NCBI GenBank assembly: GCA_050186075.1 | Contig: JBFWYU010000006.1 | Coordinates: forward strand, 77,291-141,290 | Reading direction: 5' to 3' | Length of the DNA stretch: 64,000 bases | DNA from: Bacteroidia bacterium | GTDB taxonomy: Bacteria > Bacteroidota > Bacteroidia > SXHM01 | Part shown: positions 33,476 through 62,697 of the stretch, in pieces | Layout: every line of letters starts with the position of its first letter | Numbering within the stretch: position 1 is the first letter of the stretch | Program-made: the position numbers and the translations under genes | Notes under the pieces: generated by a model | What the model was told of the DNA's origin: nothing | The model's input: the letters and a program-made list of their open reading frames with translations, nothing else | Databases searched by the model: none

Positions 33476-35575
33476 TTACTCCGGATGATAAATCCTCTCC
33501 GCGCTTTTATAAACATCCTCTTTTTTGAGCGACATTTTTTTCATGCGGTGTTCCGAGAATAAGGGCATCTGGTCAGTATAGTGTTTACTGTACGGCATAC
33601 TGGATGCACCAAACGCATTGATGGATTCTATCTGCGGACCTTCTCTGGTAAACTGCACCAACTGAACGTAACCGTCACCGGCTTTCATGCGGATGCGGCC
33701 ATCGGGTAAAATATCACCAAACACAGCACGTATGGCATCGGGCCCTCCGTTAATTCCGTAAAATTTTCCCGCACGCTCCAACACTTGCACTTTTCCGGTA
33801 GGAACATCAATGGTTCCGAAATGCTTGACTAAATGTTCCTTTGATTCGCGGATGCAGGCAACTGCTAATGCTTCCATTTTTGCATCGTCTTTTTCAACAC
33901 CTTGTCTGCGCTCACCGGGTCCCTGCAATAAGCGGTAAATTGAAAAAAGAAAAACCGGAAAATTGCGGTCAAGTGTATCAGCTGTGCGGTCAAAGTTTTT
34001 AATCCGGATAATGGCATCTGCTATGTCGGGATACTTTGCCGTGTCTAACTGAAAGAATTTATCCATCCAGAAATCGCCTTTAAAGGTTGTTCGCTTAGGA
34101 AAAGTATGATCGTATTTCAGGTCTTTAAAATTCTGATAACTAAGTGTTGAATTGGCGTATTTCTCATTCATTATTTCTTCAAAGCGCAGACTGCGGTTGT
34201 TGTATTGCTCAACATATCCGATGCCGGGATTGAATTGCGGAAGGGTGCAATTGTTATCATCGCAGGTGGCTTCATACCCTGCGTTGTTGGTATTGAATAC
34301 ATAACCGCAATCGGGATTCAGAAAATGTGCAAGGCTGTCAATGGGCAGGTATTTTTTATCCCAAAGTGTTGCAGAAGTATCACCCGGCAAAACTTTTTTC
34401 CAGTTGTAATGTCTGTCGCGGTGGGGTATTAAACCGTTGGCGATAAAAAAGATGGTATCGTTTTTATCGGCATAGGTAATGTTCTGGCGCGATAAGCCCT
34501 GCACATCCAGTGCCTTTTTGAACTCGGTAAAGTTGCGTGCCTTGTTCATGCGAAACCATTGCACCGATGGTTTCAGTTCCAGCAATGCGGGCATGCGCAG
34601 TGCAAAAACTCCGTTATCGTTTTTCATAGTGGGGCCATATACACTGGTCCAGTATTTTTTGCGCACATGCAGTTTAAAGTTTTTCTTTTTGCCCAATGCC
34701 ACAATCAGTTTGGCGCGGTGCGTTTCTAGTTTTTTCCATTCGCCATCAAACTTGTACCGGTTCTTTTTGCGTGGGTGCATGTTCAGTTTGTAAACATCAA
34801 TCTCGTCCAGTTGACCGGTAGTATGCGCCCAGCCAAGGTTTTCGTTCGTGCCCAGAAAAATGGTTGCCGAGCCGTGAAACAGCGCTCCTACAATATTCCA
34901 GCCTTCTTCGCTGCACACATGCGCCTCGTACCACGATAGCAAACCCTCAATCGGCTGATGCGCATTCACCGCCAGGTAGGTATTTCCGGTTTCGGTTTTG
35001 GTAGAGTTAAACGCAAAAGCATTGGAGCCAATTCCGTCTTCGGGCTTTGGCATGTCTTTAATGATGCGGCCATCCACCATTTTTTTTACCGTGCCTTCCA
35101 CACCGCCCATCAGCGCCATGCCCAGCATGTAGCCTGCCACCAAGTGTTGCGGACGAATGGGCAAAAGTTTTTTGTCCCACATTTTTTCGGGATGCGCGGT
35201 ATAATAGGCATTGGCACCGGCTGCATAGCCTTCCAGTACGCGTTTGAAATCTTCGGGTATTTCTTTCTCGTAGTTTGCCTCTACATAGTCCATCGTGCCC
35301 AGAAACTGAATGGCAAAATCTATTTTAGCTCCTTCCATACCCAGGCCCTTGCCCAGCAAACCTTTTATGGCACTCAGCAGATATTGCGAGTTGCTGGTAT
35401 CGTCTTCGGCTGTAGCCCATGCCAGACCAAATGCAGCTTCAGCATCGGTTTTCCCGAAAATGTGTGGCACTCCAAAACTGTCGCGCACAATTTCAATGTT
35501 TTTAGGGTTGATGGTTTGCGCTGAAAGAGAAGAAATAAACAACAGGTAACAGGCGATAGACAAAGAAAAGCGCAT
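33476..35575 (-). CDS. penicillin acylase family (Ntn-hydrolase, peptidase S45; possible AHL acylase) - paralog 1
   Basis: Signal peptide. N-terminal RDSFGVPHIFGKTDAEAAFGLAWATAEDD and overall 699-aa length typical of PvdQ/PGA-type acylases. Paralogous to 49069..51135. Confidence 0.75.
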   Translation of the reverse strand: MRFSLSIACYLLFISSLSAQTINPKNIEIVRDSFGVPHIFGKTDAEAAFGLAWATAEDDTSNSQYLLSAIKGLLGKGLGMEGAKIDFAIQFLGTMDYVEANYEKEIPEDFKRVLEGYAAGANAYYTAHPEKMWDKKLLPIRPQHLVAGYMLGMALMGGVEGTVKKMVDGRIIKDMPKPEDGIGSNAFAFNSTKTETGNTYLAVNAHQPIEGLLSWYEAHVCSEEGWNIVGALFHGSATIFLGTNENLGWAHTTGQLDEIDVYKLNMHPRKKNRYKFDGEWKKLETHRAKLIVALGKKKNFKLHVRKKYWTSVYGPTMKNDNGVFALRMPALLELKPSVQWFRMNKARNFTEFKKALDVQGLSRQNITYADKNDTIFFIANGLIPHRDRHYNWKKVLPGDTSATLWDKKYLPIDSLAHFLNPDCGYVFNTNNAGYEATCDDNNCTLPQFNPGIGYVEQYNNRSLRFEEIMNEKYANSTLSYQNFKDLKYDHTFPKRTTFKGDFWMDKFFQLDTAKYPDIADAIIRIKNFDRTADTLDRNFPVFLFSIYRLLQGPGERRQGVEKDDAKMEALAVACIRESKEHLVKHFGTIDVPTGKVQVLERAGKFYGINGGPDAIRAVFGDILPDGRIRMKAGDGYVQLVQFTREGPQIESINAFGASSMPYSKHYTDQMPLFSEHRMKKMSLKKEDVYKSAERIYHPE

Positions 35576-38732: not shown

Positions 38733-39023
38733 ATGACTTCTACAGAGATCATAAAAACTTTACGGGAGCAAATGCCTTTGATGCGCCAACAATTCAGTGT
38801 TGACCGGATAGGACTGTTTGGCTCATACTCACGCAACGAGCAAACTGAAAGTTCAGATATTGATGTGTTGGTGAAGTTCAATAAACATGATTTGAAATCA
38901 TTGATAGGTCTGCTTGATTTTCTTGAAGCCAGATTGCAAAAAAAAGTAGACATCGTAACAGACGGGAAGCAACTGAGCGAACGATTTAAAAAACACGTTC
39001 AGTCTGAAATTATCTATGCGTAA
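38733..39023 (+). CDS. nucleotidyltransferase-domain protein, MNT-type antitoxin of a HepT/MNT pair
   Basis: Minimal nucleotidyltransferase motif GLFGSYSRNEQTESSDIDVLV. Overlaps the downstream HepT-like gene by 8 nt. Confidence 0.7.
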   Translation: MTSTEIIKTLREQMPLMRQQFSVDRIGLFGSYSRNEQTESSDIDVLVKFNKHDLKSLIGLLDFLEARLQKKVDIVTDGKQLSERFKKHVQSEIIYA

Positions 39024-39384
39024 CGAGCTGCTGATTTCAAAATTTGAGTTTATCCTTGATTCCGTTTCTCTTATTCAAACCTGGTTCAGCGAAATAAAAA
39101 CTGCTGATGATTACCTGAAAACTTCTTCCGGGCGCTCACACTTTGATGCAACGCTTATGCGTCTGCAAAGCATTGGTGAAACCTTGAAGAAGATTGATAA
39201 AGAGAACCCTGAAATCCTTCAAAAGCATAACGAAGTAAACTGGCACGAAATAATTAAGTTGCGTGAAATAATTTCGCATCATTACGAGCAGTTAAGCCCT
39301 GAAATTATCTACAATATTTGTCGTTATGATATTCCTGATCTCAAAACAAGTGTCGAGCGTATAATTGCAACATTGAATGAATAA
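39016..39384 (+). CDS. DUF86 / HepT-like HEPN ribonuclease toxin
   Basis: HEPN Rx4HxY motif in LREIISHHYEQL. 122 aa. Paired with the upstream MNT gene. Confidence 0.7.
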   Translation: MRNELLISKFEFILDSVSLIQTWFSEIKTADDYLKTSSGRSHFDATLMRLQSIGETLKKIDKENPEILQKHNEVNWHEIIKLREIISHHYEQLSPEIIYNICRYDIPDLKTSVERIIATLNE

Positions 39385-41344: not shown

Positions 41345-42316
41345 TTAATGTAACACTATCTTCCTGAGAGTTGTGCCGTGTTCTATTGAATTAATTTTGC
41401 AATAATACAATCCACTACTTAAATTATCCAGTGATAAAGCATAAATTTTGTCTGTGATATTATTAAAACTATTTACCAGCATTCCGGCTGAGTTAAATAA
41501 TTCTATGGAATAGGGTGTGAATTCTGAATGGATGTTAATCTTTGAAATAGCGGGATTTGGGTAGATTTTTACTACAGCATCATTATTTTCCTGAACGGAA
41601 GTTGTAAGTAGTTGAAGCAGTTCTTCAATTTCTTGTTCCATTCTTCCGGCAGGCTCACCTAACCAACCTTCTTTATAAAAAACTGTTCCATCAGGTTTTA
41701 TCAGATAGGCATTGTTTGCCGCAGGGCCAAAATTGTTCCACCAGATGTTACACGGATCATCTATTAAAACAGGAAACAGAATAGTTCTTTTAGTTAACAA
41801 GGTGTCAACCATTTTTTTTCTGTCTTCGTAAGTTTGATGCTGAGGATAAAAAATATTTTCATCACTATTTTGTTGAGGAACAAACACCGTACCTGTGAAA
41901 GGACAAATTTCGGGAGGCTTGGGATGAGCTTCTATTGTATAAACTAAATAGATATTTATGTAATTACCATATTGTAAAACCAGATTGTTCATTAAATCAA
42001 TACTAGCTCTGAATTTGTCGCAGGTATAGCTACCCGATACAATTAACAAGGGTTTATTTTGATTTAATAATGATGAAATTTCAATATTGTCTCCGCTTGG
42101 TGATTGGAGTAAAATATTATTTAATGTGTCGTTGATTTTATAGCCAGAAAAGTTAAATGTATGAGTTGTGTCTATGTAAACATCAAAATCGCAGATACTA
42201 TCGGTTGAAACCGGATTTATAATTTGCTCTAGTCCGGGCTTAAGATAGGATTGTGAATACCCTTCAAAAACAATAAAGAGCAAAATGGCATAAACGGGCA
42301 ATTGTATAATCTTCAT
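41345..42316 (-). CDS. hypothetical secreted protein with T9SS type-A C-terminal sorting domain
   Basis: Signal peptide. C-terminus VKIYPNPAISKINIHSE...LSSGLYYCKINS...LRKIVLH matches the T9SS CTD pattern. N-terminal domain unassigned. Confidence 0.5.
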   Translation of the reverse strand: MKIIQLPVYAILLFIVFEGYSQSYLKPGLEQIINPVSTDSICDFDVYIDTTHTFNFSGYKINDTLNNILLQSPSGDNIEISSLLNQNKPLLIVSGSYTCDKFRASIDLMNNLVLQYGNYINIYLVYTIEAHPKPPEICPFTGTVFVPQQNSDENIFYPQHQTYEDRKKMVDTLLTKRTILFPVLIDDPCNIWWNNFGPAANNAYLIKPDGTVFYKEGWLGEPAGRMEQEIEELLQLLTTSVQENNDAVVKIYPNPAISKINIHSEFTPYSIELFNSAGMLVNSFNNITDKIYALSLDNLSSGLYYCKINSIEHGTTLRKIVLH

Positions 42317-42452
42317 TTAACTTAATCCTGCTTTAATTTACATGGCACTTGTTTGTACAATATTATTATAAGAAAATCCTAACAAGCAATCTATTCTATG
42401 AAATCTATCATTACTCCGACAGGTGGTAAATGTTTTTTAGATTTGTAAAAAA

Positions 42453-42884
42453 ATGAGACTAACAAATCTAATAATCCTAATACTTTGTTTTTGCCTACTT
42501 TTTAATTCTTGTAGCAAGAACAGTAATAACAACAGCAATATTCCTTATGTGCCTGTAAACATTGACATCTATCCCGCCAATCCGCAATACATTAATCTGA
42601 ATGTGGATGGCGGCTGGATATATCTTACCGGAGGTTCGCGCGGAATAATTGTTTACCGCCTGGCACAGGGTGAATATTATGCCTACGACCGTCATTGCAC
42701 CTACCAGCCCCTTGATGCGTGTGGTAAGGTAAAAATGGACACCGATAACATTACCCTGGTTGATACCTGCTGCGGTTCAAAATTTATTGTAGTGGATGGT
42801 TCAGTAATTAATGGTCCCGCAGGATTGCCGTTACAACGCTACCAGACTTATTATGACGGAACAACACTGCACATTACTAATTAG
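42453..42884 (+). CDS. small Cys-rich lipoprotein (first gene of a 5-gene operon)
   Basis: Lipoprotein signal LILCFCLLFNSCS. Cys/His cluster DRHCTYQPLDACGK ... DTCCGSKF, which loosely resembles Rieske box spacing but lacks the His ligands. Confidence 0.45.
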   Translation: MRLTNLIILILCFCLLFNSCSKNSNNNSNIPYVPVNIDIYPANPQYINLNVDGGWIYLTGGSRGIIVYRLAQGEYYAYDRHCTYQPLDACGKVKMDTDNITLVDTCCGSKFIVVDGSVINGPAGLPLQRYQTYYDGTTLHITN

Positions 42885-42885
42885 A

Positions 42886-43518
42886 ATGAGAGTTTTTGCA
42901 CTTTTATTAATTCCGGCTGCGCTGATTTTATTTTCCTGCGGAACTAAACAATCCAACGGAACAGGGCATTATGCCAATGCACTTGCAGCTATTGACAGCA
43001 GTAACTATTCTGTTGCATTGCAGCAATTAAATGAAGCTATTGAAACAAAAGAGAACGACACTACGCTTGCTTATTTGTTTTTCCTGCGCGGACAGATGCA
43101 TGAAAAAACAGGCAGTTTGGATTTGGCTGTGGTAGATTATGCAGAAGCAGCAAAACAAAATCCTTCTGATGTTACTGCGCACCTGAAAGCAGGTAATGTT
43201 TTTAATCTTTTAGGAAAATACGATGATGCGCTTAACAGCTACAACAGCGCACTGACAATTAATGCTGATAATATTGATGCATTACTTAAACGCGCAGATA
43301 TTTTAACTGCAACAGACAAAGACTCTCTTGCCTTTGCCGACTTTGAGAAAGTGATTTCATTGGAGCCTGAAAATGATTATGCTATTATGAGTCGTGCATT
43401 GATTTATCAGCGGTTTAATCAACAGGATAAATGTTGTGCAGATCTTGAAAAAGCTGCATCGCTTGGTAATGAAACTGCAGCAGAATTTTTACACAGCATG
43501 TGCGGAAAACAAAAGTAG
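42886..43518 (+). CDS. TPR-repeat lipoprotein
   Basis: Lipoprotein signal MRVFALLLIPAALILFSCG. Three to four TPR-like repeats (AYLFFLRGQMHEKTGSLDLAVVDYAEAAKQNP ...). Starts 2 nt after the previous stop. Confidence 0.6.
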   Translation: MRVFALLLIPAALILFSCGTKQSNGTGHYANALAAIDSSNYSVALQQLNEAIETKENDTTLAYLFFLRGQMHEKTGSLDLAVVDYAEAAKQNPSDVTAHLKAGNVFNLLGKYDDALNSYNSALTINADNIDALLKRADILTATDKDSLAFADFEKVISLEPENDYAIMSRALIYQRFNQQDKCCADLEKAASLGNETAAEFLHSMCGKQK

Positions 43519-43521
43519 AGA

Positions 43522-44628
43522 ATGGGAAATAGTTTCAATAATGCACTTGATAATGCTATAACCGTTTGCTGGCGGTTGCTTGAGCTTCCTTTATTTGTAT
43601 TGCTTTCGGTGCTGATGTTGGTTTTTCTTGCGCTTTGGCTTGTTATCAAAAAGCGGTATGAGAAGAGGGGTAAAAACACTAAAACAGCAATCGTAATTCT
43701 TCTGATTGCATTTTTTATTCTTTCTGCTGCGCTCATTGCTGATGTAAAAATAGTTTCCACACTGAATGAAGTGCGCGAACTCCGTTCGCAAATGCTGCTA
43801 CAACAAAATGATAAAGTTGCTGCAACTGCAACGTCAGACTTAAAGAGTAATTACAATATTGACAACCTGAATACTGTTTTGCAGAAAAAGTTTGGTGCGA
43901 TTGAAATCGTTTCAAAACCTGAACACAGTTCAGTTGACTTTATGGTTTTAAAAATCAAAGAACCGCTGACGCATGTCTATATTTCGGTAGTTGATTTAAC
44001 GGATAAAAATCTGGAAGTGGTAATTACTCCCGAGCTTACCGAAAAATGGCTGACCAGTGCATTTGCAAAACAAAACAATTGTGTGGTTGCTGTAAATGGT
44101 GAGGCAGGAATGAACCCGCGTCAGGGTTGTGGCTTTGGCGAGTGGATTGGCAACTGGATAGTGAAAGGAAAAACGATTTTGTTAATGGATAATGACAAGC
44201 GCCCTTTTCTTTCATTTGATAAAAACAATCATGCAAAATATTTCCGTGAGGAATTAGTGGATAAAACCCTTACGGATGAAAAGTATAACACCATCTGGGG
44301 CAGATTTGATATTATTCTTCAAGGCGAAAATCTTGAACGTGAGCCTGGCTGGCAGCAACCTCGCACCATTATGGGAATTGATAAAGCAGGAGGGAAACTT
44401 TTTCTGATGGTGGTAGATGGCCGCCAACCTGCTTACAGCATGGGAATGGGGCTGAAAGAAGCTGCAGATATTTTGCTGGCATTAGGTTGCTACGAGGCTA
44501 TGTCCTGTGACCAGGGAGGCTCTGCCTGTATGTATCTGAAAAGCACGGGAGGCATCGTTTCCCGCCCGAGTGATGATGGCAGAGAACGTTTTACCTACAA
44601 TCATTTCGGGATAAAATTTAACGAATGA
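43522..44628 (+). CDS. membrane-anchored phosphodiester glycosidase family (NAGPA / DUF2233-like) protein
   Basis: N-terminal TM anchor. C-terminal LGCYEAMSCDQGGSACMYL resembles the NAGPA-domain LDGGGS motif. 4-nt overlap with the next gene. Confidence 0.5.
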   Translation: MGNSFNNALDNAITVCWRLLELPLFVLLSVLMLVFLALWLVIKKRYEKRGKNTKTAIVILLIAFFILSAALIADVKIVSTLNEVRELRSQMLLQQNDKVAATATSDLKSNYNIDNLNTVLQKKFGAIEIVSKPEHSSVDFMVLKIKEPLTHVYISVVDLTDKNLEVVITPELTEKWLTSAFAKQNNCVVAVNGEAGMNPRQGCGFGEWIGNWIVKGKTILLMDNDKRPFLSFDKNNHAKYFREELVDKTLTDEKYNTIWGRFDIILQGENLEREPGWQQPRTIMGIDKAGGKLFLMVVDGRQPAYSMGMGLKEAADILLALGCYEAMSCDQGGSACMYLKSTGGIVSRPSDDGRERFTYNHFGIKFNE

Positions 44629-45893
44629 AAAACAGGCTTTTCTCGTTTTCATTGCTGATTGTTGTTATAATTCTTTCTTCTTGTTCTGAAAATAAATCCG
44701 GGATTTCTGCTTTTTATCTTGAGACAGACATATCAAAGCTAAATACCGAGAAAAAAATTCCCTGCACGGTGTCTTACAGCGATTCAGAAGGCGAACGAGT
44801 ATTTGATAAGATGCAGGCCGGCATTATGTATAAAGGAAATCAAAGCCTGGCTTTTGAAAAGAAATCATTTTCCATTGAGCTGAGTGAGAAGGTGAAAATA
44901 GAAGGGATGGATGCTGATGATGACTGGAAACTGAATGCATCCTACATTGACAAAACATTTCTGCGCAACAAAATCAGCTACAATCTTTACCGGCTTTTCA
45001 GCGAAAATAATATTGCACCAAACGTTTCGTGGGTTGAGGTTTTTCTTAATAATACTTATCATGGTTTGTATATTGTAACGGACAGAATGGATGCTAAGCG
45101 ACTTGGACTTGATGATAAAGATACCGCTGCAGTGCTCTTTAAAGCAGCACCTATCAGCCAGTTGCCATCGGCTCTTGACTCGGTTCAGCGCGGTTATGCT
45201 GATTATGTGATGACTGCCGAACGCTGGAGTTCATGGTCGGAAGAGGGTAAGAAAGAATTTGCAGCTGATATTTATTTCAATCAGCGCTATCCTGAGTTTG
45301 CAAAAAAGAACAAGCACTTCGTTATTTACCAACTGACAGCGTTTTTGCATAACACTACAACAGAAGAATTCACAGCAAAGAGAGGTGGAGTTGATTCTGT
45401 TTTTGATATTGAAAATATCATTGACTTTCATTTGCTGTTGCTGATTACCAATAACGGAGATGGTGTGGTGAATAACAATTATCTTTATCGTCAGAATTCA
45501 AACACGCCTTACAGAATTTGTCCGTATGATTTTGACCACAGTTTCGGGCGCGATGGTGACGGAGAGCCCAACCCCGCTGATTTTATTGACTTAAGAAGGA
45601 ATATACTGATAACCAGACTGATTGAAACCAATGCCTTTAATTACAAAGAACGCCTTAAAGAGAAGTATTTGCGATTGAAAGATCGAAATATTCTGACGGT
45701 TGAAAACATTACTGCAATGATTGATGAACATGCCGCACGGATAAAACCGTTTGCACTGAAAGATGAAAGAAAATGGAAGCCGGAAGCACATAAGTATTTT
45801 CAAAATACTGATTATGACAAAGAGATTGAGTTAATGAAGGTTTGGCTAAAACAGCATTTACCCAAAGTGGAAAAATACATAAACGAGTTATGA
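44625..45893 (+). CDS. CotH-kinase-family lipoprotein
   Basis: Lipoprotein signal LLIVVIILSSCS. CotH core pattern IDFHLLLLITNNGDGVVNNNYLYRQN...YRICPYDFDHSFG (compare CotH NYYLY...PWDxDxSFG). Confidence 0.6.
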   Translation: MKNRLFSFSLLIVVIILSSCSENKSGISAFYLETDISKLNTEKKIPCTVSYSDSEGERVFDKMQAGIMYKGNQSLAFEKKSFSIELSEKVKIEGMDADDDWKLNASYIDKTFLRNKISYNLYRLFSENNIAPNVSWVEVFLNNTYHGLYIVTDRMDAKRLGLDDKDTAAVLFKAAPISQLPSALDSVQRGYADYVMTAERWSSWSEEGKKEFAADIYFNQRYPEFAKKNKHFVIYQLTAFLHNTTTEEFTAKRGGVDSVFDIENIIDFHLLLLITNNGDGVVNNNYLYRQNSNTPYRICPYDFDHSFGRDGDGEPNPADFIDLRRNILITRLIETNAFNYKERLKEKYLRLKDRNILTVENITAMIDEHAARIKPFALKDERKWKPEAHKYFQNTDYDKEIELMKVWLKQHLPKVEKYINEL

Positions 45894-46855
45894 TTGTAGT
45901 TACAGGAGCAGCAGGTTTCATTGGTAGTTGTTTGATTGAAAAACTCAACAGCGAACAATACTATGATGTAGTTGCAGTTGATGATTTTTCTGATGAACAA
46001 AAGAATAAAAATCTGGATGGAAAGAGAATTTCTGCCCGCGTTGAGCGCAAGGTGTTTGCTGACTGGCTCAGAGAAAATCAACGCTTTGTTCAGTTTGTGT
46101 TTCACCTGGGCGCGCGCACCGATACTACCGAATTTGATAAAACTGTTTTTGATGAACTTAATCTCAATTACTCAAAGGATGTTTGGAATATCTGCGTTGA
46201 GTTTGGTTTGCCACTCGTGTATGCTTCCTCTGCGGCAACCTATGGTTTAGGTGAACTGGGCTTTGCGGATAGCGAAGAAATCATTCCCAATCTAAAACCG
46301 CTAAACCCTTATGGCGATTCTAAAAATGATTTTGATAAATGGGTGCTGATACAAAGACGAAAACCATTTTTTTGGGCTGGGCTTAAGTTTTTTAATGTTT
46401 ATGGTCCTAATGAATATCATAAAGGCCGCATGGCTTCAGTGATTTTTCACACGTTTAATTCGGTGAAGAATACGGGCAAGATGAAATTGTTTCGTTCGCA
46501 CAATGCCGTCTATAAAGACGGAGAACAACTGCGCGACTTTATTTATGTGAAAGATGTGTGCGATGTATGTTTTTATTTAATGCTTAACCGCAAGCACAGC
46601 GGCATTTATAATCTGGGCACTGGAAAAGCACGAAGTTTTCTTGCGCTGGTACAAAATGTTTTCAAGACAATGGGTGTTGATGAAAGTATTGAATTTATTG
46701 ATACTCCCGAAGATATACGCGACAAGTATCAGTATTTTACCGAGGCCAAAATGCAGAAGCTGCGTTCCATAGGCTACAGGAATGAATTTACATCACTGGA
46801 AGATGGTATTGCGGATTATGTGAAAAATTACCTTGCTGTTCAGAAATATTTATGA
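45890..46855 (+). CDS. hldD: ADP-L-glycero-D-manno-heptose 6-epimerase
   Basis: Rossmann motif MIVVTGAAGFIGS. LVYASSAATYG, FFNVYGPNEYHKGRMASV, IYNLGTGKARSF and RDKYQYFTEAKMQKLRSIGY closely parallel E. coli HldD/RfaD. ATGA overlap with the CotH gene. Confidence 0.85.
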   Translation: MIVVTGAAGFIGSCLIEKLNSEQYYDVVAVDDFSDEQKNKNLDGKRISARVERKVFADWLRENQRFVQFVFHLGARTDTTEFDKTVFDELNLNYSKDVWNICVEFGLPLVYASSAATYGLGELGFADSEEIIPNLKPLNPYGDSKNDFDKWVLIQRRKPFFWAGLKFFNVYGPNEYHKGRMASVIFHTFNSVKNTGKMKLFRSHNAVYKDGEQLRDFIYVKDVCDVCFYLMLNRKHSGIYNLGTGKARSFLALVQNVFKTMGVDESIEFIDTPEDIRDKYQYFTEAKMQKLRSIGYRNEFTSLEDGIADYVKNYLAVQKYL

Positions 46856-46879: not shown

Positions 46880-48586
46880 TTGAATAATTCTTCACGCATA
46901 TATGCCATTGTAGCGGTTGTAATGTCGCTGCTCTTCATTATCTGGAGTGTTACGTTAATACGTTCTGTTAAAGTCCAGCGCGATGATGTTTCAAATCATG
47001 TGGCAGCTATTACACAAATCGGTGCGATAAATCATGCTATTCTTGAGTTGCAGACTATTTACCTTGAAGATAAATACCACACCAACAGTAACTGGGTTTC
47101 GGGATTGGAGACGTATACCAAAACTGTAAATAATTTCAGGGAAAGGAACACTACTTCGCCCGAGATGGCTGATTATATCTACGCACTGGACTCCATTGTG
47201 CGCAGAGCGGTGATTATTCACACATCGATATACAGTGGCGAAACAAAATCCGAGGCAGAACTGAACCAGCTTGAGACTGAGTTTAAGAGCGAGCTGAATG
47301 AAGCGCTGGAACTGAACGAGACTACTACCACCAAAATAAGGCTGAAGCTGGCAAAGTTTTCGGATCAGCTTGCGTGGAAATGGACCTGGCTGAATGTGCT
47401 CGTTATGTTTTCGTGTATTCTGGCCATTGTGCTATCGGTTGTAAGTATTCTGAACAGCATCAATTACCAGAAGCGGAAAAAGGCAATGATAGCCCTGCGG
47501 GCCGAGAAAGATAAAGCACAGAGTTATCTGGATATGGCAGGTTCTATTCTTGTGGTGATTGACCGTAATCAGCGCATAAGTATGCTGAATAAAAAAGGCT
47601 TGGAAATCATAGGGCTTACACACGAAGAGGAAGTTATAGGCCGAAATGCATTTGATTATTTTGCTTCAAAAAGTGAACGCGAATTGCTGAGAGAGGGTTT
47701 TGATAAAGTAATAAAGGGTGAAGCGCAGCTGGTTGAGTATTATGAACGCAGAGTGGTTTCTAAAAGCGGTGAAGAGCGCATAGTGGGCTGGCACAACAGT
47801 TTGCTCGAAGATATGAGCGGAAAGATTATTGGCGTATTGAGTTCGGGTGATGATGTGACGGAGAAAAAATTCCGTGAGAAAGCACTAAAAGATACGGTAA
47901 TAAAATTAGAGAAATCGAACGAGCAACTGGAAGGCTTTGCCTATATGGCAACCCACGATTTGCGCGCACCTGTTGCCAACCTGATGGCGCTACTTAATCT
48001 TTACAATAAAGAACAGCCGGAAGACGAAGAAAATAAATTTATCTTCCAGAAGTTTGAAGAAAGTGTAAAAATACTGAACAACACACTGAGTGATCTGATT
48101 GATATTGTAGCGGTGAATAAAAATAAGTTTGATGAAAAAGTGGACATCAACATTGAAGAAACGCTGAAAAATGTGATGGAAAGTGTGAAGGAAGACATCA
48201 ATAAATCAGGTATTGAGGTAAAATTTGATTTCAGTAAATGCAATGAAGTAAGTTATCCTGCCTCACAGTTTCGCAGCATACTGATTAATATGCTTACCAA
48301 TGCTATCAAGTACCGTTCGCCTGATAAAAAAGCTAAAGTGGAAATTACATCCACGATAGAAAATGGTTTTGTGCGTCTGGATTTTGCTGACAACGGATTA
48401 GGAATAGACCTGAAGAAATACGGCAGCAAGCTGTTTCAGATGAACAAGCGCTTTCATGTTGGAACTGAAGGCAAGGGTATCGGACTTTTTATTATTAAGT
48501 CTCAGGTAGAGGCAATGGGGGGAAAAGTTGGAATTGTAAGTGAGCCGGGAACAGGCACAACCTTCAGTGTTTTTATAAAACATTGA
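46880..48586 (+). CDS. PAS-domain sensor histidine kinase
   Basis: Two N-terminal TM segments flanking a periplasmic/coiled-coil region, then a PAS domain. H-box MATHDLRAPVANL. HATPase_c G-boxes FADNGLGID and GKGIGLFIIKSQVEAMGG. Confidence 0.8.
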   Translation: MNNSSRIYAIVAVVMSLLFIIWSVTLIRSVKVQRDDVSNHVAAITQIGAINHAILELQTIYLEDKYHTNSNWVSGLETYTKTVNNFRERNTTSPEMADYIYALDSIVRRAVIIHTSIYSGETKSEAELNQLETEFKSELNEALELNETTTTKIRLKLAKFSDQLAWKWTWLNVLVMFSCILAIVLSVVSILNSINYQKRKKAMIALRAEKDKAQSYLDMAGSILVVIDRNQRISMLNKKGLEIIGLTHEEEVIGRNAFDYFASKSERELLREGFDKVIKGEAQLVEYYERRVVSKSGEERIVGWHNSLLEDMSGKIIGVLSSGDDVTEKKFREKALKDTVIKLEKSNEQLEGFAYMATHDLRAPVANLMALLNLYNKEQPEDEENKFIFQKFEESVKILNNTLSDLIDIVAVNKNKFDEKVDINIEETLKNVMESVKEDINKSGIEVKFDFSKCNEVSYPASQFRSILINMLTNAIKYRSPDKKAKVEITSTIENGFVRLDFADNGLGIDLKKYGSKLFQMNKRFHVGTEGKGIGLFIIKSQVEAMGGKVGIVSEPGTGTTFSVFIKH

Positions 48587-48613: not shown

Positions 48614-49027
48614 ATGAAAAAAATAAAACACATAATGCTGGTAGATGATGACGATACTACTATTTATGTTACCCGCAGATTTATTGAAAAAGCAGGCATT
48701 GCCGAAAAGGTAACCAGCAAAAAAAGCGGGCAGGAGGCATTGGCCTATTTCTCGGATTTTGAAAAGTACAAGAGCGACCCCGAGAATGAGATTGATCTTA
48801 TCTTCTTAGACATCAACATGCCAGTGATGGATGGTTTTGAGTTTCTGGAAGAGTTTGAAAAGCTAACATTTGAACCGGCACTGAAGAAAGTAAAAATCAT
48901 TATGCTCACTTCATCTGTGTTTCATATCGATAGGTTTAAGTCGCAGAGCTTTCCCAACGTAATCAGCTATATCAGCAAGCCTGTTTCTATTGACAGTTTG
49001 AAGGATATAGTTGAGCGGTATTTCTGA
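48614..49027 (+). CDS. single-domain response regulator (CheY-like receiver)
   Basis: IMLVDDDD (acidic pocket), phospho-acceptor context IFLDINMPVMDG, and conserved Lys region SKP. 137 aa with no output domain. Confidence 0.8.
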   Translation: MKKIKHIMLVDDDDTTIYVTRRFIEKAGIAEKVTSKKSGQEALAYFSDFEKYKSDPENEIDLIFLDINMPVMDGFEFLEEFEKLTFEPALKKVKIIMLTSSVFHIDRFKSQSFPNVISYISKPVSIDSLKDIVERYF

Positions 49028-49068: not shown

Positions 49069-51135
49069 CTATTGCCCGCCCGGGTGATACACTTTCTCTG
49101 CGTTTTGTTTTATTTTTTCCCAGTCAAAGGTCATGGTTTTGAATTGTTCTTTGCTGAACAGTTCCATCTGGTCGGTATAGTGTTTGCTTTGCGGATGCGA
49201 AGATGCACCGTAGGCATTTACCGAATTTATTTCCACTCCGGTTTTTGAATATTTATTTACCTGAATGTAGCCATCGCCAGCGGTTACGCGCCAGATGCCT
49301 TTTTTCTTGTCAAACAGTTTGGAGTCGGTTGCGCGCGATACTTCGCGCAATCCGCTGGCGGCAAAACTTGCGTTGCCGCGAATCATGCGTTGAATATCGC
49401 CCAGCTTTATATCAATGGTTCCGTATTTGCGCAGCATAAATTTGCGGGTGTGGCGAAGCGCATTCACCAGTTCGGTTTCGTGAAGCGGTTCTTTTTTAAT
49501 CATCAGAAATGCAAAGGGTACTTTCCATTCTTTCATCAGTTTTTCGTGCATAATCATAGCTACTGCCGCCTCTTTATTTTCTGTTTCACCGCTGCGGTTC
49601 CATTGTTTCAGTTTTTGAATTACATCGGCTATGTCGGGATATTTTTTTTCGTCTAATTCAAATGCTGTTGTAAAATTGCGGGCATAGCTTCCGCTTTGCG
49701 AATAGCTTTTATCGAACTTGATGCGAAGAAAATCCTGCCATGTAAATTTTCCATTTACTTCTGCGAGCAACTCAGCAAAGCGCTCGCCCCTGTTGTAGTT
49801 AAACTGCTGAATGCCGATAAAACTTCCGGGCCATGCACACTCTTTACCGCTGACTGAATATTGCGTTTGATTGCAGCTGAAGAGGTAGCCGCAGCTTGGG
49901 TTTAGCAGTGATGGTTTGCGCTCATAGGGCACTAAGGAATTCCATTTGTAGTTAGAGGTGTTGGCCGTAATGGGTGTATTCCAGTTGAGGGTTGAATCGC
50001 GGAGGGGAACCTGCCCACCGCTCTGGTAAAAGATAGTGCCGTCAACATCGGCATAGGTAATGTTGAACAGGGGAATGGCTTCCATTTTTAAGGCGGTTTC
50101 AAATTCCTGAAAGTTGCTTGCCTTGTTCATGCGAAACCATTGTTCGGTGGCGCGCAAATCCATTGCTCCGGGGAAACGAATGGCATACCATCCGTGCTTT
50201 GACTGAAACACAGGGCCATATTCGCAGGTGCGGATCTTTTTAGTAATGCCGATTTTACCAATTCCTGTTTTTATTTTCAGGTGTGCTTTTTTGGTTTTAA
50301 ATGTTTGCCATTTTCCGTCATACAGGTATTTATTGCCTTTGTGTTTCAGTTTATAGATGTCGCCAAAGGTGTGGTAGTTGGTGGTGTGTGCCCATCCTAA
50401 CTTCTGGTTGCTGCCTACAAATATGGTAGTGCCACCGGGAAAAAGGCCTCCTATAATATCCCAGCCTTCATCGCTTTTGATGTGTGCCTCGTACCAGGCA
50501 AAGCGCCCTTCAATGGGTTGATGCGAGTTGATGAGCAGCCATGCTTTGCCATCGTTGGTGCGCGTGGGTGCTATGGCCATGGAATTAGAGCCCACCTCGT
50601 TGGGCTGATGCAATAATTGAATGTGATTGTCTTTAATGGATTTGAGTGCCATGCCCGCACCTGCAAAAAGGGTAAGTGTAAGCGTTGAGCCTTTTACCAT
50701 ATCGGTGGCTTTAAAGGGCAATGCTTTTTTAAGCAACACTTCATCGGGGTGCTGGGCTGCATAATCGTTTACGCCCTGGGTGTAGCCTTCCAGCACTTTT
50801 TTAAAATCAGAGGAAATAACGCGCTCGTAATTATTATCAACTAAGGTGTCGATTCCAAAAAACTGCAGACCAAAATCAAACAACACACCTTCTTTGCCGA
50901 GCACCTGACCTAACATGCCTTTTGCGACAAGCAGGTTTTGCTGTATGCTTTTAAAGTCGTCTTCGCAATGGGCGTAGGCTAAACCGTAGGCAGCTTCGGC
51001 ATCGGTGTGGCCATAGATGTGGGGCACTCCGAAACTGTCGCGGGCTATGGTAATGTTGGCAGGGTTTATCTGTGCACTGAGCCCGGGAGCAAAAACAAGG
51101 AATAGAAGAGAAAGGAGTAATTGGCGTTTTTTCAT
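49069..51135 (-). CDS. penicillin acylase family (Ntn-hydrolase, peptidase S45; possible AHL acylase) - paralog 2
   Basis: Signal peptide. N-terminal RDSFGVPHIYGHTDAEAAYGLAYAHCEDD aligns by eye with 33476..35575 at roughly half identity. Confidence 0.75.
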   Translation of the reverse strand: MKKRQLLLSLLFLVFAPGLSAQINPANITIARDSFGVPHIYGHTDAEAAYGLAYAHCEDDFKSIQQNLLVAKGMLGQVLGKEGVLFDFGLQFFGIDTLVDNNYERVISSDFKKVLEGYTQGVNDYAAQHPDEVLLKKALPFKATDMVKGSTLTLTLFAGAGMALKSIKDNHIQLLHQPNEVGSNSMAIAPTRTNDGKAWLLINSHQPIEGRFAWYEAHIKSDEGWDIIGGLFPGGTTIFVGSNQKLGWAHTTNYHTFGDIYKLKHKGNKYLYDGKWQTFKTKKAHLKIKTGIGKIGITKKIRTCEYGPVFQSKHGWYAIRFPGAMDLRATEQWFRMNKASNFQEFETALKMEAIPLFNITYADVDGTIFYQSGGQVPLRDSTLNWNTPITANTSNYKWNSLVPYERKPSLLNPSCGYLFSCNQTQYSVSGKECAWPGSFIGIQQFNYNRGERFAELLAEVNGKFTWQDFLRIKFDKSYSQSGSYARNFTTAFELDEKKYPDIADVIQKLKQWNRSGETENKEAAVAMIMHEKLMKEWKVPFAFLMIKKEPLHETELVNALRHTRKFMLRKYGTIDIKLGDIQRMIRGNASFAASGLREVSRATDSKLFDKKKGIWRVTAGDGYIQVNKYSKTGVEINSVNAYGASSHPQSKHYTDQMELFSKEQFKTMTFDWEKIKQNAEKVYHPGGQ

Positions 51136-58369: not shown

Positions 58370-58431
58370 GTGGGAGCTACTGGGTTCGAACCAGTGACCC
58401 CCTGCTTGTAAGGCAGGTGCTCTGAACCAGC
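58370..58431 (-). repeat. 62-bp direct repeat, the 3' portion of tRNA-Val including CCA: attR of the integrated islet
   Basis: gtgggagctactgggttcgaaccagtgaccccctgcttgtaaggcaggtgctctgaaccagc is identical to 62622..62683 within the intact tRNA-Val. The sequence diverges immediately 5' of the D-arm. Confidence 0.85.
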
Positions 58432-58577
58432 CAATATGCTGATTTTTATCAAGATCCTCAGAGAAGCTGCGGGGATTTGCAGATTTTTTGCAGGTGAAAG
58501 CTTGGTTTATAATGATTTAATCACAGTAAGGGGTTGACTAAAACAATTGTTGATCTTGAATATTATCTGCAAGGAAG

Positions 58578-59411
58578 TTAGTTGGTGCAGTTTAGCTCAA
58601 TTCTAAAATCATCTTCAGGTTCTGCATCATCAGAACAGTTAATGGGGGCTCCATTATCATCTAAGCAAAATTCTTTTGGACCAACCTGACCTATAACAGT
58701 ACCATCTCCATCAGTAATTTTTACAGTTGCTAAAGTTGCCCAATTACTTCCACCGTTATCTACATTTATTGCAAATGGGAAATCAACAATGTAGCTGTAA
58801 GTGTGCAAACTCTGAGCAAAATTTTGTGATACTGTTTGGCTCCATGTGGTTAAGCCTGTCATATCGACTGGTTGAGTAATACCATTATCATCAGTATAAC
58901 TTATATATAATCTACTTCCACCTGCCCCAAGTGGAATAGGATTATTAAATTCAACAGAATATGTAAAACTACAGGTTGTATACAGGTCTGAATAATTTTT
59001 TTCTAACTGATATATTTTTTCAAACTGCCCGTCATCGTAGTTCTTTAAAGTTAAACTGTTATTTGTTTGGTTTAATATATGGTATTGCCAACCAGCCAAA
59101 GTAATGTAAGGAGAAACTGCGCTCCATGGCATAACTGTGGGGTCGCAGCTATACAACCCATTTTCACAATAGAAATGCCCTCCATATGGATTACTGCTAA
59201 ATTTTACTTTACAATGAGCTGTATCTGTGGATGTTTCTACTTTAACACACTCTGCTGAAGTGTTTAAAGGGTCGGTGACGGTTTTTCTTTTAATGTACCA
59301 AGTTCCTACAAGCCCTTGCTCAAAAGAAGATGGTGTGTTACCCGAGTTGGGGTTACAACTTGTTAATAAGCCAACAATAAGTATAAGGAGAGTTACTGTT
59401 TTTGCTTTCAT
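58578..59411 (-). CDS. islet cargo: Cys-rich lipoprotein with N-terminal lipocalin-like signature
   Basis: Lipoprotein signal LLILIVGLLTSCNPNS. GTWYIK lipocalin-like motif. Ten or more Cys residues. No catalytic motif recognised. Confidence 0.5.
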   Translation of the reverse strand: MKAKTVTLLILIVGLLTSCNPNSGNTPSSFEQGLVGTWYIKRKTVTDPLNTSAECVKVETSTDTAHCKVKFSSNPYGGHFYCENGLYSCDPTVMPWSAVSPYITLAGWQYHILNQTNNSLTLKNYDDGQFEKIYQLEKNYSDLYTTCSFTYSVEFNNPIPLGAGGSRLYISYTDDNGITQPVDMTGLTTWSQTVSQNFAQSLHTYSYIVDFPFAINVDNGGSNWATLATVKITDGDGTVIGQVGPKEFCLDDNGAPINCSDDAEPEDDFRIELNCTN

Positions 59412-59574
59412 GTTAAATGTGTTTGTGAAAAACCAATCAAATGTATAATATTTTCACAAGGCATGATATTGTCTCTGTAGCTGCAGGGAATTACATAGCT
59501 GCTTGCCAGTATAGTCTGGGTTCTAAAAATTAGTGCATCACCTCTCTTTGCAGAACATAACACAATCCTTGTGC

Positions 59575-59880
59575 TTACCCTATTCTTTTTAGGACATTCT
59601 TTTTTGCAAAAGCCTGTCTTTTTATCTTCTCATTTAACTCATACTCTTGTGGGTGTTTTTCTTTGATTATCTCACTTAGTTGAGAATATGCACAATCAGA
59701 AAGCGTAATGCGCCTTCTCCCATTGTAGTAAATCCTTTTAGTAGCTTTCCATAGTGATAATGGGTCTGCTTTAATCCATACCCACACTCTCTTGTAGATT
59801 AATTCATTGTCAATAACAAGAGGGGCTACATCTTTAAGCCTCAGCTCTCTAATAATTCTGGTTCTTCTTCTGAATTTCAT
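59575..59880 (-). CDS. islet cargo: small basic protein (possible DNA-binding/excision accessory factor)
   Basis: 101 aa, Arg/Lys-rich (MKFRRRTRIIRELRLKD...KRIYYNGRRRITL...). Sits between the ATPase and lipoprotein genes. Function is inferred from position in an integrative element only. Confidence 0.35.
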   Translation of the reverse strand: MKFRRRTRIIRELRLKDVAPLVIDNELIYKRVWVWIKADPLSLWKATKRIYYNGRRRITLSDCAYSQLSEIIKEKHPQEYELNEKIKRQAFAKKNVLKRIG

Positions 59881-60044
59881 TTTACTTGGTTAATAAAGTT
59901 ATTGGGCTCCACCATGGCGTCCTGCCTAAAAAATAACAAAAATTCACTGTAAAAGCAAATTGAGTTTTGAACAATCATGTAGACTTTTAAACATTAGGTA
60001 GTAACATTAAGAGAGCACAGTTTCCCATGCTCTCCTTTCCCGCG

Positions 60045-60728
60045 CTAATGTTGGTGTTTTGATGATCCATTCAAAGAAGGATTTACAGGTGAGTTTGATG
60101 CATTACACCATTCACAAATTTCCCTGCCCAAATTCTCATTTAATACTATCTCACTCATATTATAGAAAACTTCAGTTCTGTCTTTAATCACAGAGGTAAT
60201 ATGCTTTTGGTTAAGTTCAAGCACAATGGTGAATTCATATTCAGTATCTTCACGCTGAACAGCCTTTAGCCCTACTTTTTCAGGAACCATTTTACCATTT
60301 TTATCCAGAATGATATATTCTGTCTTGGCTCTCATTGTTGCTATTACATGTATATCACTTTTAAGAATAGCCTGAATAAATGAATTATGCCGTGGAGTAA
60401 CTTTAGACCAAGCTGCAAATGAATTTCCAGGGATTTTGCTGTGAATATCCAATATTCCTCCATCACCTGACCATTCTGCTGAGAGAGTGTCAATAATCAG
60501 GCATTTATAGCCGTTCTTAACTGCAAGGTCAATAGCTTCTACATAATGCTCAGGAGAGTATGGTGCTGTTAAATTCAATACAGAGTATTCTCCTAAATGT
60601 GAATAAAGATGGGATGAACCATTCTCAGTGTCAATTACTGCAATCTTATTCCAATCTCCTGTAATTCCATAAGCTAATAGCAATGCTGAAAATGTTTTAC
60701 CTGAACCAGAAGAGCCTTGTAAGGTCAT
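60045..60728 (-). CDS. islet cargo: RecA-fold P-loop ATPase, AAA_24/Sak4-like
   Basis: Walker A GSSGSGKTFSAL, Walker B KCLIIDTLSAEW, ~230 aa with a C-terminal CEWC pair. Start placed at the internal MTLQG (the ORF extends to 60773). Confidence 0.55.
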   Translation of the reverse strand: MTLQGSSGSGKTFSALLLAYGITGDWNKIAVIDTENGSSHLYSHLGEYSVLNLTAPYSPEHYVEAIDLAVKNGYKCLIIDTLSAEWSGDGGILDIHSKIPGNSFAAWSKVTPRHNSFIQAILKSDIHVIATMRAKTEYIILDKNGKMVPEKVGLKAVQREDTEYEFTIVLELNQKHITSVIKDRTEVFYNMSEIVLNENLGREICEWCNASNSPVNPSLNGSSKHQH

Positions 60729-61237
60729 TTTAATTTTGCAGCTGTTCCTTGCTGCTTTGTGAAAGTGTTCCATAGTTTAAATTTTTAAGGTTTATAATCC
60801 TTCACAGTGAGGGGTTGGCAAAAAAAGACAGAATACAGGGGTCAACCTTTGCAAGGCTTAACACTCCTATATGCTGTCAGGCTGTTATCTTCAGTGTTTT
60901 TTATTAACGGAGAAAAGGCTCAAGAAACAGGCAAAGAATACAACATACTCCGGATGAGGTTTATAGTAACCTTGAATTAAATAAACATACAAGTGGATTT
61001 TGGTTTTTATTCCCCTTTCGGCTGATTATTAAACTCAACAATAATCTCATAGGGGGTGACCACCCTTTTATAAGTAAGTGGGGGTAGTCAGTGAGATAGT
61101 TCTATTAAACTCTAATGCTCTTAGCTATATACTGCCCGTAAATTTTAAAAGTTTAAATTTTTTGGGTAAAAATTATTTTTCACAACAACAACACACGTAG
61201 GGTATCTACACTCACTCTTGAAAAAAGTAAGGGGTTG

Positions 61238-62470: not shown

Positions 62471-62619
62471 AGCTGCTGTTTTTTGCAGCTTTCACTCTTA
62501 AAAAATTTGCAGGTGGTTTGCAGGTGGATTTCTCCTTTCTCTGATAAGACACTATTTAATCTCAAAAGAGTTAAAAAGCAAGAAGCCCCACAATACTGAA
62601 TATTGCAGGGCTTTCATTG

Positions 62620-62697
62620 TGGTGGGAGCTACTGGGTTCGAACCAGTGACCCCCTGCTTGTAAGGCAGGTGCTCTGAACCAGCTGAGCTAAGCTCCC
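62620..62697 (-). tRNA. tRNA-Val: tRNA-Val (anticodon TAC), CCA encoded. Integration target of the islet.
   Basis: Minus-strand sequence GGGAGCTTAGCTCAGCTGGTTCAGAGCACCTGCCTTACAAGCAGGGGGTCACTGGTTCGAACCCAGTAGCTCCCACCA folds as a cloverleaf. Anticodon loop CTTACAA gives TAC. Confidence 0.9.

Follow-up and report, generated by a model that had tools for sequence, protein, structure and literature searches.

We analysed a 64,000-nucleotide stretch of DNA from a Bacteroidia bacterium (lineage Bacteroidota; Bacteroidia; SXHM01; GenBank assembly GCA_050186075.1, contig JBFWYU010000006.1, positions 77,291 to 141,290 of the forward strand), which we call the window and number from its first nucleotide. 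Our subject is a string of five closely packed genes, g1 to g5, encoding two lipoproteins, a phosphodiester glycosidase of the NAGPA/DUF2233 family, a lipoprotein of the CotH kinase-fold family and the heptose epimerase HldD. The evidence leans slightly towards a composite operon that is specific to a genus- or family-level clade of uncultured Bacteroidia, in which the NAGPA and CotH proteins (with the TPR protein g2) form an envelope core and hldD is a passenger. The genes and the features that follow them are these:

42453..42884, + strand: g1, 143-residue lipoprotein with a predicted Rieske fold
42886..43518, + strand: g2, 210-residue TPR lipoprotein; ATG start inside a longer open reading frame, 42811-43518
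43522..44628, + strand: g3, 368-residue phosphodiester glycosidase (NAGPA/DUF2233 family), predicted to be membrane-anchored
44625..45893, + strand: g4, 422-residue CotH-family kinase-fold lipoprotein
45890..46855, + strand: g5 (hldD), 321-residue SDR of the ADP-glyceromanno-heptose 6-epimerase (HldD) family; ATG start inside open reading frame 45842-46855
46880..48586, + strand: PAS sensor histidine kinase (HisKA, HATPase_c and PAS domains); start TTG 46880 or ATG 46922
48614..49027, + strand: putative stand-alone response-regulator receiver, from open reading frame and translation; N-terminal acidic motif MLVDDDD
49070..49089, + strand: terminator-like G+C hairpin that closes the co-directional run, from a consensus scan only

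A preliminary description of this DNA had placed five co-directional genes here, and the list of open reading frames (ORFs) bears this out. Read from the sequence, the g1/g2 gap is 1 nucleotide (TAG a ATG) and the g2/g3 gap is 3 nucleotides, a trivial departure from the 2-nucleotide gaps first given, while the g3/g4 and g4/g5 junctions are ATGA overlaps, as described. The five genes stand where they had been placed, but the 'five-gene operon' was drawn too short: the co-directional run continues beyond hldD with the histidine kinase (after 24 nucleotides, if the TTG start is used) and then the receiver (after 27 nucleotides), giving seven genes in total. The receiver call rests on the motif MLVDDDD, read by eye and with no profile search made on this protein; it is 95–96% identical in L002–L004 (L followed by a number denotes a related locus or contig compared with the window, WIN). 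The hairpin at 49070–49089 stands ahead of a convergent penicillin-amidase gene. Tight junctions are frequent across the window (others lie at 2781, 5283/5286, 26906/26909 and 57152/57155), and four in a row thus give the string an ordinary operon look rather than making it a statistical oddity. Both the gene order and the ATGA overlaps are retained wherever a related contig covers them, in eight contigs altogether (L001–L004 and L081–L084). Lipoprotein signals are present in g1 (LFNS/C20), g2 (LFS/C) and g4 (LSS/C20); g1–g4 are predicted to be extracytoplasmic and g5 cytoplasmic. Proteins g3 and g4 have 100% identical matches among NCBI proteins from metagenome-assembled genomes.

Transcription of the string appears to start just ahead of g1. 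The sequence TAGATTTG (42438..42445, + strand), which ends 7 nucleotides before the g1 ATG, matches the Bacteroidetes sigma-A -7 consensus TAnnTTTG, and it is the sole + strand match between 41830 and 48123. A TAnnTTTG motif lies 14–15 nucleotides ahead of the g1 start in WIN, L001–L004 and L081, despite differing upstream genes: most of these relatives have a gene for a co-directional S8 peptidase there, and the window has a divergent deiodinase-like gene. For L083/L084 the motif was inferred by back-translating N-terminal residues, not from DNA. There was no + strand TAnnTTTG inside g1..g5 in the window or in L002, and none within about 450 nucleotides upstream of hldD in L003, L004 and L082. 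The consensus match and its conservation suggest that a single transcript running from this promoter through hldD is most likely; the close coupling of the genes noted in the preliminary description is thus plausibly co-transcription, given one conserved -7 motif ahead of g1 and none inside the string. A sigma-70 promoter scan, which returned 30 sites against 22.9 expected, was uninformative; Bacteroidota use a different consensus, and TAnnTTTG was used instead. Weak matches in an intrinsic-terminator scan fell within genes (43919, 46423 and 46910) and were judged to be due to chance. An Rfam scan gave no match to an RNA family within the operon or close to it.

All the domain assignments that had been made by eye (TPR, NAGPA, CotH and HldD) were confirmed by Pfam or NCBIfam profiles. 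The searches that had been proposed for g4 and g3 both gave scores above the gathering threshold. For g4, the match to PF08757 (CotH) has E=4.7e-45 and 154.9 bits against a cutoff of 23.8, and covers profile positions 1–318 of 322; a g4 profile run against the PDB matched Bacillus cereus CotH (5jd9) with E=6e-32. D279 (in NGDG) and D302 (in YDFD) of g4, 23 residues apart, align to B. cereus D224 and D247. In B. subtilis CotH the catalytic Asp and the metal-binding Asp, D228 and D251, have the same 23-residue spacing, and their substitution inactivates the kinase (PMC7821199). Among 17 relatives of g4, down to 31% identity, D302, N284 and the FGRDGDGE block do not vary, and D279 and the lipobox Cys20 are nearly invariant. 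The catalytic residues of g4 are intact; ATP-dependent phosphorylation of a protein, if g4 performs it, would raise the question of the phosphoryl donor at its predicted extracytoplasmic location.

In its Pfam family, its match to the solved structures (5jd9/5jda), its Asp spacing and its Asn, g4 resembles the Bacillus spore-coat Ser/Thr kinase CotH. It differs in being a predicted extracytoplasmic lipoprotein of a non-sporulating host, in having a phosphodiester glycosidase as its partner gene, and in that no CotB/CotG-like serine-rich substrates were seen near it. Bacteroidota are not known to form endospores; a spore-coat role does not fit g4, whose host is a Bacteroidia bacterium and whose window encodes cargo proteins of the type IX secretion system (T9SS). 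Another parallel is SIR_1594, a secreted CotH-domain protein in the pel exopolysaccharide cluster of Streptococcus intermedius, deletion of which alters polymer level and aggregation (PMC12345266). SIR_1594 shares with g4, itself predicted to be secreted, a non-sporulating host and a place in an envelope or exopolysaccharide gene cluster; it differs in phylum, in its CotH+FN3 architecture and in having pel genes as neighbours rather than NAGPA, TPR and hldD genes.

The g3 protein matches PF09992 (NAGPA) over residues 185–364 with E=8.1e-20 and 72.1 bits against a gathering cutoff of 25, covering profile positions 1–168 of 169. Its profile finds 3ohg with E=7.5e-17 and the vertebrate NAGPA structures with E of about 1e-6. 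Ahead of the C-terminal catalytic domain, g3 has a conserved N-terminal motif (MGDxFNxxxDxLxAxxWRLLELP) followed by two transmembrane helices around a Lys/Arg-rich loop, and by the positive-inside rule we infer that the catalytic domain is periplasmic. CDQGGS, which is invariant in this two-helix subfamily, aligns with the DGGGS motif of the solved DUF2233/NAGPA structures with the first Gly changed to Gln, and R356 aligns with an Arg of the solved bacterial structures. The essential Asp of DGGGS corresponds to D286 of human NAGPA and the phosphate-binding Arg to human R316 (PMC13474241). g3 keeps the Asp and the G-G-S of this motif, and hydrolysis of a sugar-1-phosphodiester is a candidate activity. 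The protein shares a catalytic domain, the motif Asp and the downstream Arg with the NAGPA uncovering enzyme and bacterial DUF2233 proteins (PF09992; 3ohg, 6pku), and is, by prediction, membrane-tethered with a non-cytoplasmic catalytic domain as human NAGPA is. It differs in that the motif reads D-Q-G-G-S, in that its anchor is an N-terminal two-helix hairpin with a motif of its own rather than the C-terminal helix that follows the EGF domains of human NAGPA, and in that no Stealth or GlcNAc-1-phosphotransferase gene was seen near it. The preceding gene, g2, is a TPR lipoprotein as first described, with its lipobox and with Pfam matches to TPR_11 (6.9e-17), TPR_2 (1.5e-14) and other TPR models.

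The first gene had been called a Cys-rich lipoprotein. The lipoprotein signal stands, and the Cys-rich label is now resolved as a Rieske-type fold lacking both His ligands. No Pfam or NCBIfam model matches g1 above threshold (Pfam Rieske_2 reaches E=0.01 only); a profile of the g1 family run against the PDB finds the Rieske protein PetC3 (5cxm) with E=5e-6, aligning CTH of 5cxm to CTY of g1 and CPCHG to sCCGS. An alignment-based AlphaFold2 model of g1 has a predicted local distance difference test (pLDDT) score of 93.6, and Foldseek searches with it return Rieske ferredoxins as top matches (E about 1e-5); a single-sequence model (pLDDT 42.8) was useless. By profile and predicted structure, then, g1 has the fold of Rieske [2Fe-2S] proteins such as PetC3 and the dioxygenase ferredoxins, from which it differs in its lipid anchor and in its ligands. 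Both His ligands of the cluster are replaced, by Tyr and at the Cys/Gly positions (C-T-Y; C-C-G-S), with CPCHG becoming (T/D)xCCG in the family, and the Cys columns of the family are not invariant, the lipobox Cys excepted. A Rieske cluster is unlikely because both His ligands are replaced, and the sequence suggests that g1 probably carries none.

The assignment of g5 as HldD holds: it passes the equivalog model TIGR02197 with 375.6 bits (cutoff 274.6) and has the SDR motifs GAAGFIGS and YGDSK. With these motifs and no signal peptide, HldD is taken to be cytoplasmic. The likeness to Escherichia coli HldD (RfaD) extends to this model and to the NAD(P) and YxxxK motifs of SDR proteins; the difference is that g5 does not reach the cutoff of PRK11150, the enterobacterial model (237.9 bits against 452), and that the conserved neighbours of hldD in the other Bacteroidota loci are futalosine-type menaquinone genes or ccm genes, not lipopolysaccharide (LPS) genes. 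g5 is 70–92% identical to thousands of Bacteroidota proteins and 70–75% identical across Sphingobacteriia, Cytophagia and Flavobacteriia, being far more conserved than g3 or g4. Taken one by one, the genes belong to known families, of which they are unremarkable representatives, and public records already annotate them so.

We then compared gene order in related loci. On the CotH side there were 80 genome loci encoding relatives of g4 (L001–L004 close, and 76 distant, at most 43% identical); on the NAGPA side, 80 metagenome loci (L081–L084 close and 76 distant); for hldD, six other Bacteroidota loci; and for g1, two other loci. The order g1-g2-g3-g4-g5 occurs only in L001–L004 and L081–L084 (of the latter, L082 extends as far as hldD), where the CotH proteins are 73–88% identical to g4 (73–80% in L001–L004). 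Beyond these close relatives it is absent from all 76 CotH, 76 NAGPA, six hldD and two g1 loci. No hldD adjoins a CotH-like or NAGPA-like gene in any of the 152 distant loci, and none is present at all in the 76 distant NAGPA loci; a copy in L023, 8.8 kb from the CotH gene and on the opposite strand, was judged coincidental. The neighbourhoods of the CotH genes are heterogeneous, with the T9SS sorting domain as the sole recurrent Pfam family (11 of 81 neighbour cluster representatives). The closest outgroup CotH gene (P0018, 44% identical) lies between a PorZ-like gene and PadR/PspC genes, and the outgroup NAGPA gene (P0139, 41%) has an unrelated context.

Elsewhere, hldD keeps other company. 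In four of the six loci the two genes immediately before it are a PNP_UDP_1 (MqnB/MTAN-like) gene and then a VitK2_biosynth (MqnA/MqnD-like) gene, and the gaps run from -4 to 19 nucleotides; in the other two, the closest loci, it stands first, ahead of a ccm cluster. No CotH or NAGPA gene lies within 6 kb of hldD in any of the six. The triplets, in four divergent Bacteroidota including Daejeonella lutea, are:

L161, 4495-6966: PNP_UDP_1, VitK2_biosynth, hldD
L162, 4396-6966: PNP_UDP_1, VitK2_biosynth, hldD
L163, 4496-6954: PNP_UDP_1, VitK2_biosynth, hldD
L166, 4473-6966: PNP_UDP_1, VitK2_biosynth, hldD

This succession of futalosine-type genes and hldD is a conserved triplet with no obvious biochemical rationale, and hldD has left such a context in the clade of the window. 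As to g1, its family comprises at least 1000 representative clusters at 50% identity, and in both other loci, from two lineages, its members (L167:183-635 and L168:1222-1650) lie beside a convergent AdoHcyase (S-adenosylhomocysteine hydrolase) gene. Within the clade, the histidine kinase downstream of hldD is kept in L002 and L004, and in L003 it is displaced by about 4.1 kb that include two SDR paralogues. On the other flank, a gene (41345-42316, - strand) whose deiodinase-family/thioredoxin-like product bears a T9SS sorting domain is inserted between the S8 peptidase gene and g1 in WIN and L002; it is absent from the position upstream of g1 in L001, L003, L004, L081, L083 and L084.

These results bear directly on the proposal from which we started, namely that all five genes make one envelope module in which the CotH and NAGPA proteins add, edit or remove phospho-sugar decorations dependent on ADP-L,D-heptose, with the two lipoproteins as scaffold. 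Its domain assignments were all correct, every close relative retains the ATGA overlaps at g3/g4 and g4/g5, hldD has no promoter motif immediately ahead of it, and g1..g5 stay intact in the clade where the flanks vary. Conservation of the neighbourhood had, however, been named beforehand as a test of this proposal, and the five-gene order proved to be confined to close relatives, with hldD in other conserved strings in the six Bacteroidota loci. HldD is, moreover, a predicted cytoplasmic enzyme, while g1–g4 are by prediction placed outside the cytoplasm. Among the scanned ORFs of the window (most ORFs of at least 120 residues) there were no other heptose or LPS-core genes (GmhA, HldE/HddA, GmhB or GT9), and the sole glycosyltransferase was one GT4, about 10 kb off; a GT9 gene does lie 4.3 kb from hldD in the relative L165. 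The coupling of kinase and glycosidase to the heptose pathway thus fails because the gene order is not conserved in more distant relatives, which holds for hldD and for g1 alike, and we regard such a heptose module as quite improbable. We read hldD as a passenger because it is never adjacent in the distant loci and has conserved contexts of its own, and g1, which had been proposed as a component, as a passenger too, because it belongs to a large family of small lipoproteins with an unrelated setting elsewhere. What survives of the envelope-module idea is the link between NAGPA and CotH.

That link recurs. In about six separate lineages a gene of the two-helix NAGPA subfamily and a CotH-domain gene are direct neighbours on one strand, in either order and with gaps of -11 to +127 nucleotides. 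Outside the clade of the window the arrangements are:

L021/L085: NAGPA then CotH, same strand
L046: NAGPA-CotH adjacency, same strand
L098/L100/L102: CotH then NAGPA, same strand
L104/L115/L150: NAGPA then two CotH genes; in L104 the first encodes a lipoprotein and the second a protein with both a T9SS sorting domain and an LTD
L121/L136: CotH+LTD then NAGPA; called by Pfam in L121 and by BLAST clustering with the L121 protein in L136

On a rough neighbour-joining tree, CotH-linked NAGPA members fall on three of the four major branches, and the clade of the window is sister to L021/L085, which has the NAGPA-CotH pair but lacks g1, g2 and hldD. CotH is the second commonest neighbour family of the NAGPA subfamily, after GDPD+DUF4996 and ahead of TPR; GT2 and UbiA-type genes also recur. 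TPR proteins, identified by BLAST clustering, are encoded by the gene immediately before NAGPA in L105, L107 and L114; in L135 the TPR gene lies two ORFs upstream. We take the recurrence of the adjacency in scattered lineages as support of moderate strength for a NAGPA-CotH pair that works together, with a TPR protein as frequent accessory. In the literature searched we found no paper treating CotH together with a phosphodiester glycosidase and no relevant paper joining CotH and T9SS; a search for CotH with Stealth or exopolysaccharide found the S. intermedius pel precedent only.

Pure genome compaction is another explanation of the string: the genes would be neighbours, perhaps co-transcribed, with no functional cooperation even between NAGPA and CotH, and their order would be kept by kinship. 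The relatives that share the order are 70–93% identical per protein, and at such a divergence synteny often survives for no functional reason; CotH neighbourhoods are otherwise very heterogeneous, and most NAGPA-like loci lack CotH. Kinship does not account so readily for the adjacency in about five additional lineages, in either order and scattered on the NAGPA tree, with partner CotH proteins of differing architecture (lipoprotein, CotH+LTD, CotH+LTD+T9SS tail). With a few CotH genes per genome, chance adjacency should affect well below 1% of loci, an order-of-magnitude estimate that was not computed. We therefore consider compaction without cooperation unlikely, though less so than the heptose module.

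Several side observations concern the genes around the pair. A GDPD+DUF4996 glycerophosphodiester phosphodiesterase gene converges on NAGPA, often with a 4-nucleotide overlap of the 3' ends, in 20 loci, all in one branch of the tree:

L113, L116, L118, L120, L121, L124, L126, L128, L129, L132, L133, L135, L136, L139, L141-L144, L146 and L148: GDPD+DUF4996 gene at the 3' end of NAGPA

GT2 genes are often close to GDPD-linked NAGPA genes, and UbiA-type genes follow NAGPA in a different, TPR-linked branch (L105, L107, L114); together the GDPD, GT2 and UbiA neighbours give hints of phosphodiester-linked polymer or lipid-carrier chemistry. In L102, two paralogous membrane proteins of about 600 residues (L102:4696-6528 and L102:10433-12211) flank the CotH-NAGPA pair, and the insert sits between GyrB/ParE-like and GyrA/ParC-like genes, called by eye from N-terminal sequences. 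The membrane protein of about 600 residues that flanks the pair in L098/L102 (cluster 15) had no Pfam match even at E=0.1; a guess that it is a GT-C glycosyltransferase had a 'DE' motif as its sole basis and was dropped as unsupported.

How might such a pair work? The core would be the two extracytoplasmic proteins g3 and g4, often with the TPR protein g2 and here preceded by g1, and hldD and the two-component pair would be co-expressed passengers in the clade, outside the conserved functional module. Both enzymes would work in extracytoplasmic space, their substrate being an envelope glycan, exopolymer or glycoprotein that bears phosphate. From its anchor in the inner membrane and with its catalytic domain in the periplasm, g3 would take the sugar off a sugar-1-phosphodiester and leave a phosphomonoester; the kinase-type site of g4, lipid-anchored outside the cytoplasm, would add or transfer a phosphoryl group on the same class of substrate; and g2 could serve as scaffold. 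We propose this specific chemistry for g3 and g4 as a tentative scheme. It is likewise conceivable, though we would not count it as probable, that a two-helix NAGPA with a CotH protein (a lipoprotein or T9SS cargo), often with a TPR protein, makes up a previously undescribed extracytoplasmic two-enzyme system that edits phosphodiester-linked sugars or phosphate groups of an envelope glycan, exopolymer or surface glycoprotein in Bacteroidota and some other Gram-negative lineages.

A different role for g4 would be that of a non-enzymatic surface ligand or adhesin, with g3 acting independently in cell-wall or exopolymer turnover. A surface ligand or adhesin role has been proposed for the CotH invasins of Mucorales. 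By its lipobox g4 is predicted to be extracytoplasmic, with no evident source of ATP; genes for T9SS-secreted proteins are enriched beside CotH genes (the 11 of 81 representatives given above), and one partner CotH is itself T9SS cargo. The near-invariance of both catalytic Asp residues, the Asn and the FGRDGDGE block across relatives 31–80% identical argues instead for retained catalysis in g4, and we think a purely adhesive g4 improbable.

A number of points weigh against a composite operon built on an enzymatic NAGPA-CotH core. The first is chemical. The periplasm is not known to hold ATP; an extracytoplasmic kinase would have no obvious ATP supply, and the phosphoryl donor is the main difficulty, so that the chemistry of g4 may not be phosphorylation at all. 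Secondly, adjacency of NAGPA and CotH is a minority state, seen in two of the 76 distant CotH loci (L021 and L046) and nine of the 76 distant NAGPA loci, counts that are lower bounds because the local CotH hidden Markov model, built from close relatives, missed the CotH+LTD type detected by Pfam. Many of the contigs are short, and the grouping into lineages, made by eye with the help of a rough neighbour-joining tree, did not correct for phylogeny. No fusion of NAGPA with CotH or TPR was found, and six long NAGPA proteins contain PF09992 only. The promoter call rests on a consensus motif, not on a mapped transcription start. Finally, g1..g5 remain intact while both flanks are rearranged, which leaves room for a selective value of hldD in the string.

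If the two-enzyme system is real, a kinase-fold protein does its chemistry outside the cytoplasm and draws on a phosphoryl donor that is not obvious; in the clade of the window the system would also share its expression with hldD and a two-component system. Proteins of the CotH and DUF2233/NAGPA families are widespread in non-sporulating bacteria, where their roles are almost uncharted. The recurrent pairing of the two, both placed outside the cytoplasm by prediction, is a concrete and testable lead to the editing of phospho-glycans or phospho-proteins in the Bacteroidota envelope, and it raises the question of how a donor is supplied to a kinase-fold enzyme in this compartment. A tie to LPS heptose would be the more striking claim, but the distribution of gene order speaks against it and the locus is of modest interest.

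Elsewhere in the window, a probable small integrated element occupies 58374-62697. A 62-nucleotide perfect copy of the 3' part of its tRNA gene lies at about 58379–58440, so that the two sites look like att sites. Its features are:

62620-62697, - strand: tRNA-Val, abutting the tyrosine integrase gene
61238-62470, - strand: tyrosine integrase
60045-60773: AAA_24 gene, between the putative att sites

Two overlapping small genes at 38733-39384 (96 and 122 residues) have the look of an MNT/HEPN-type toxin-antitoxin pair, by sequence reading only. Two penicillin-amidase (PF01804) paralogues, at 33476-35575 and 49069-51135 (both - strand), lie 13.5 kb apart and flank the region of the operon. Near the start of the window, at 1684-7748, a string with overlapping junctions encodes DUF4856, imelysin (M75), HTTM/vitamin-K-carboxylase-like and TonB-dependent receptor proteins, and is probably a metal-uptake cluster.

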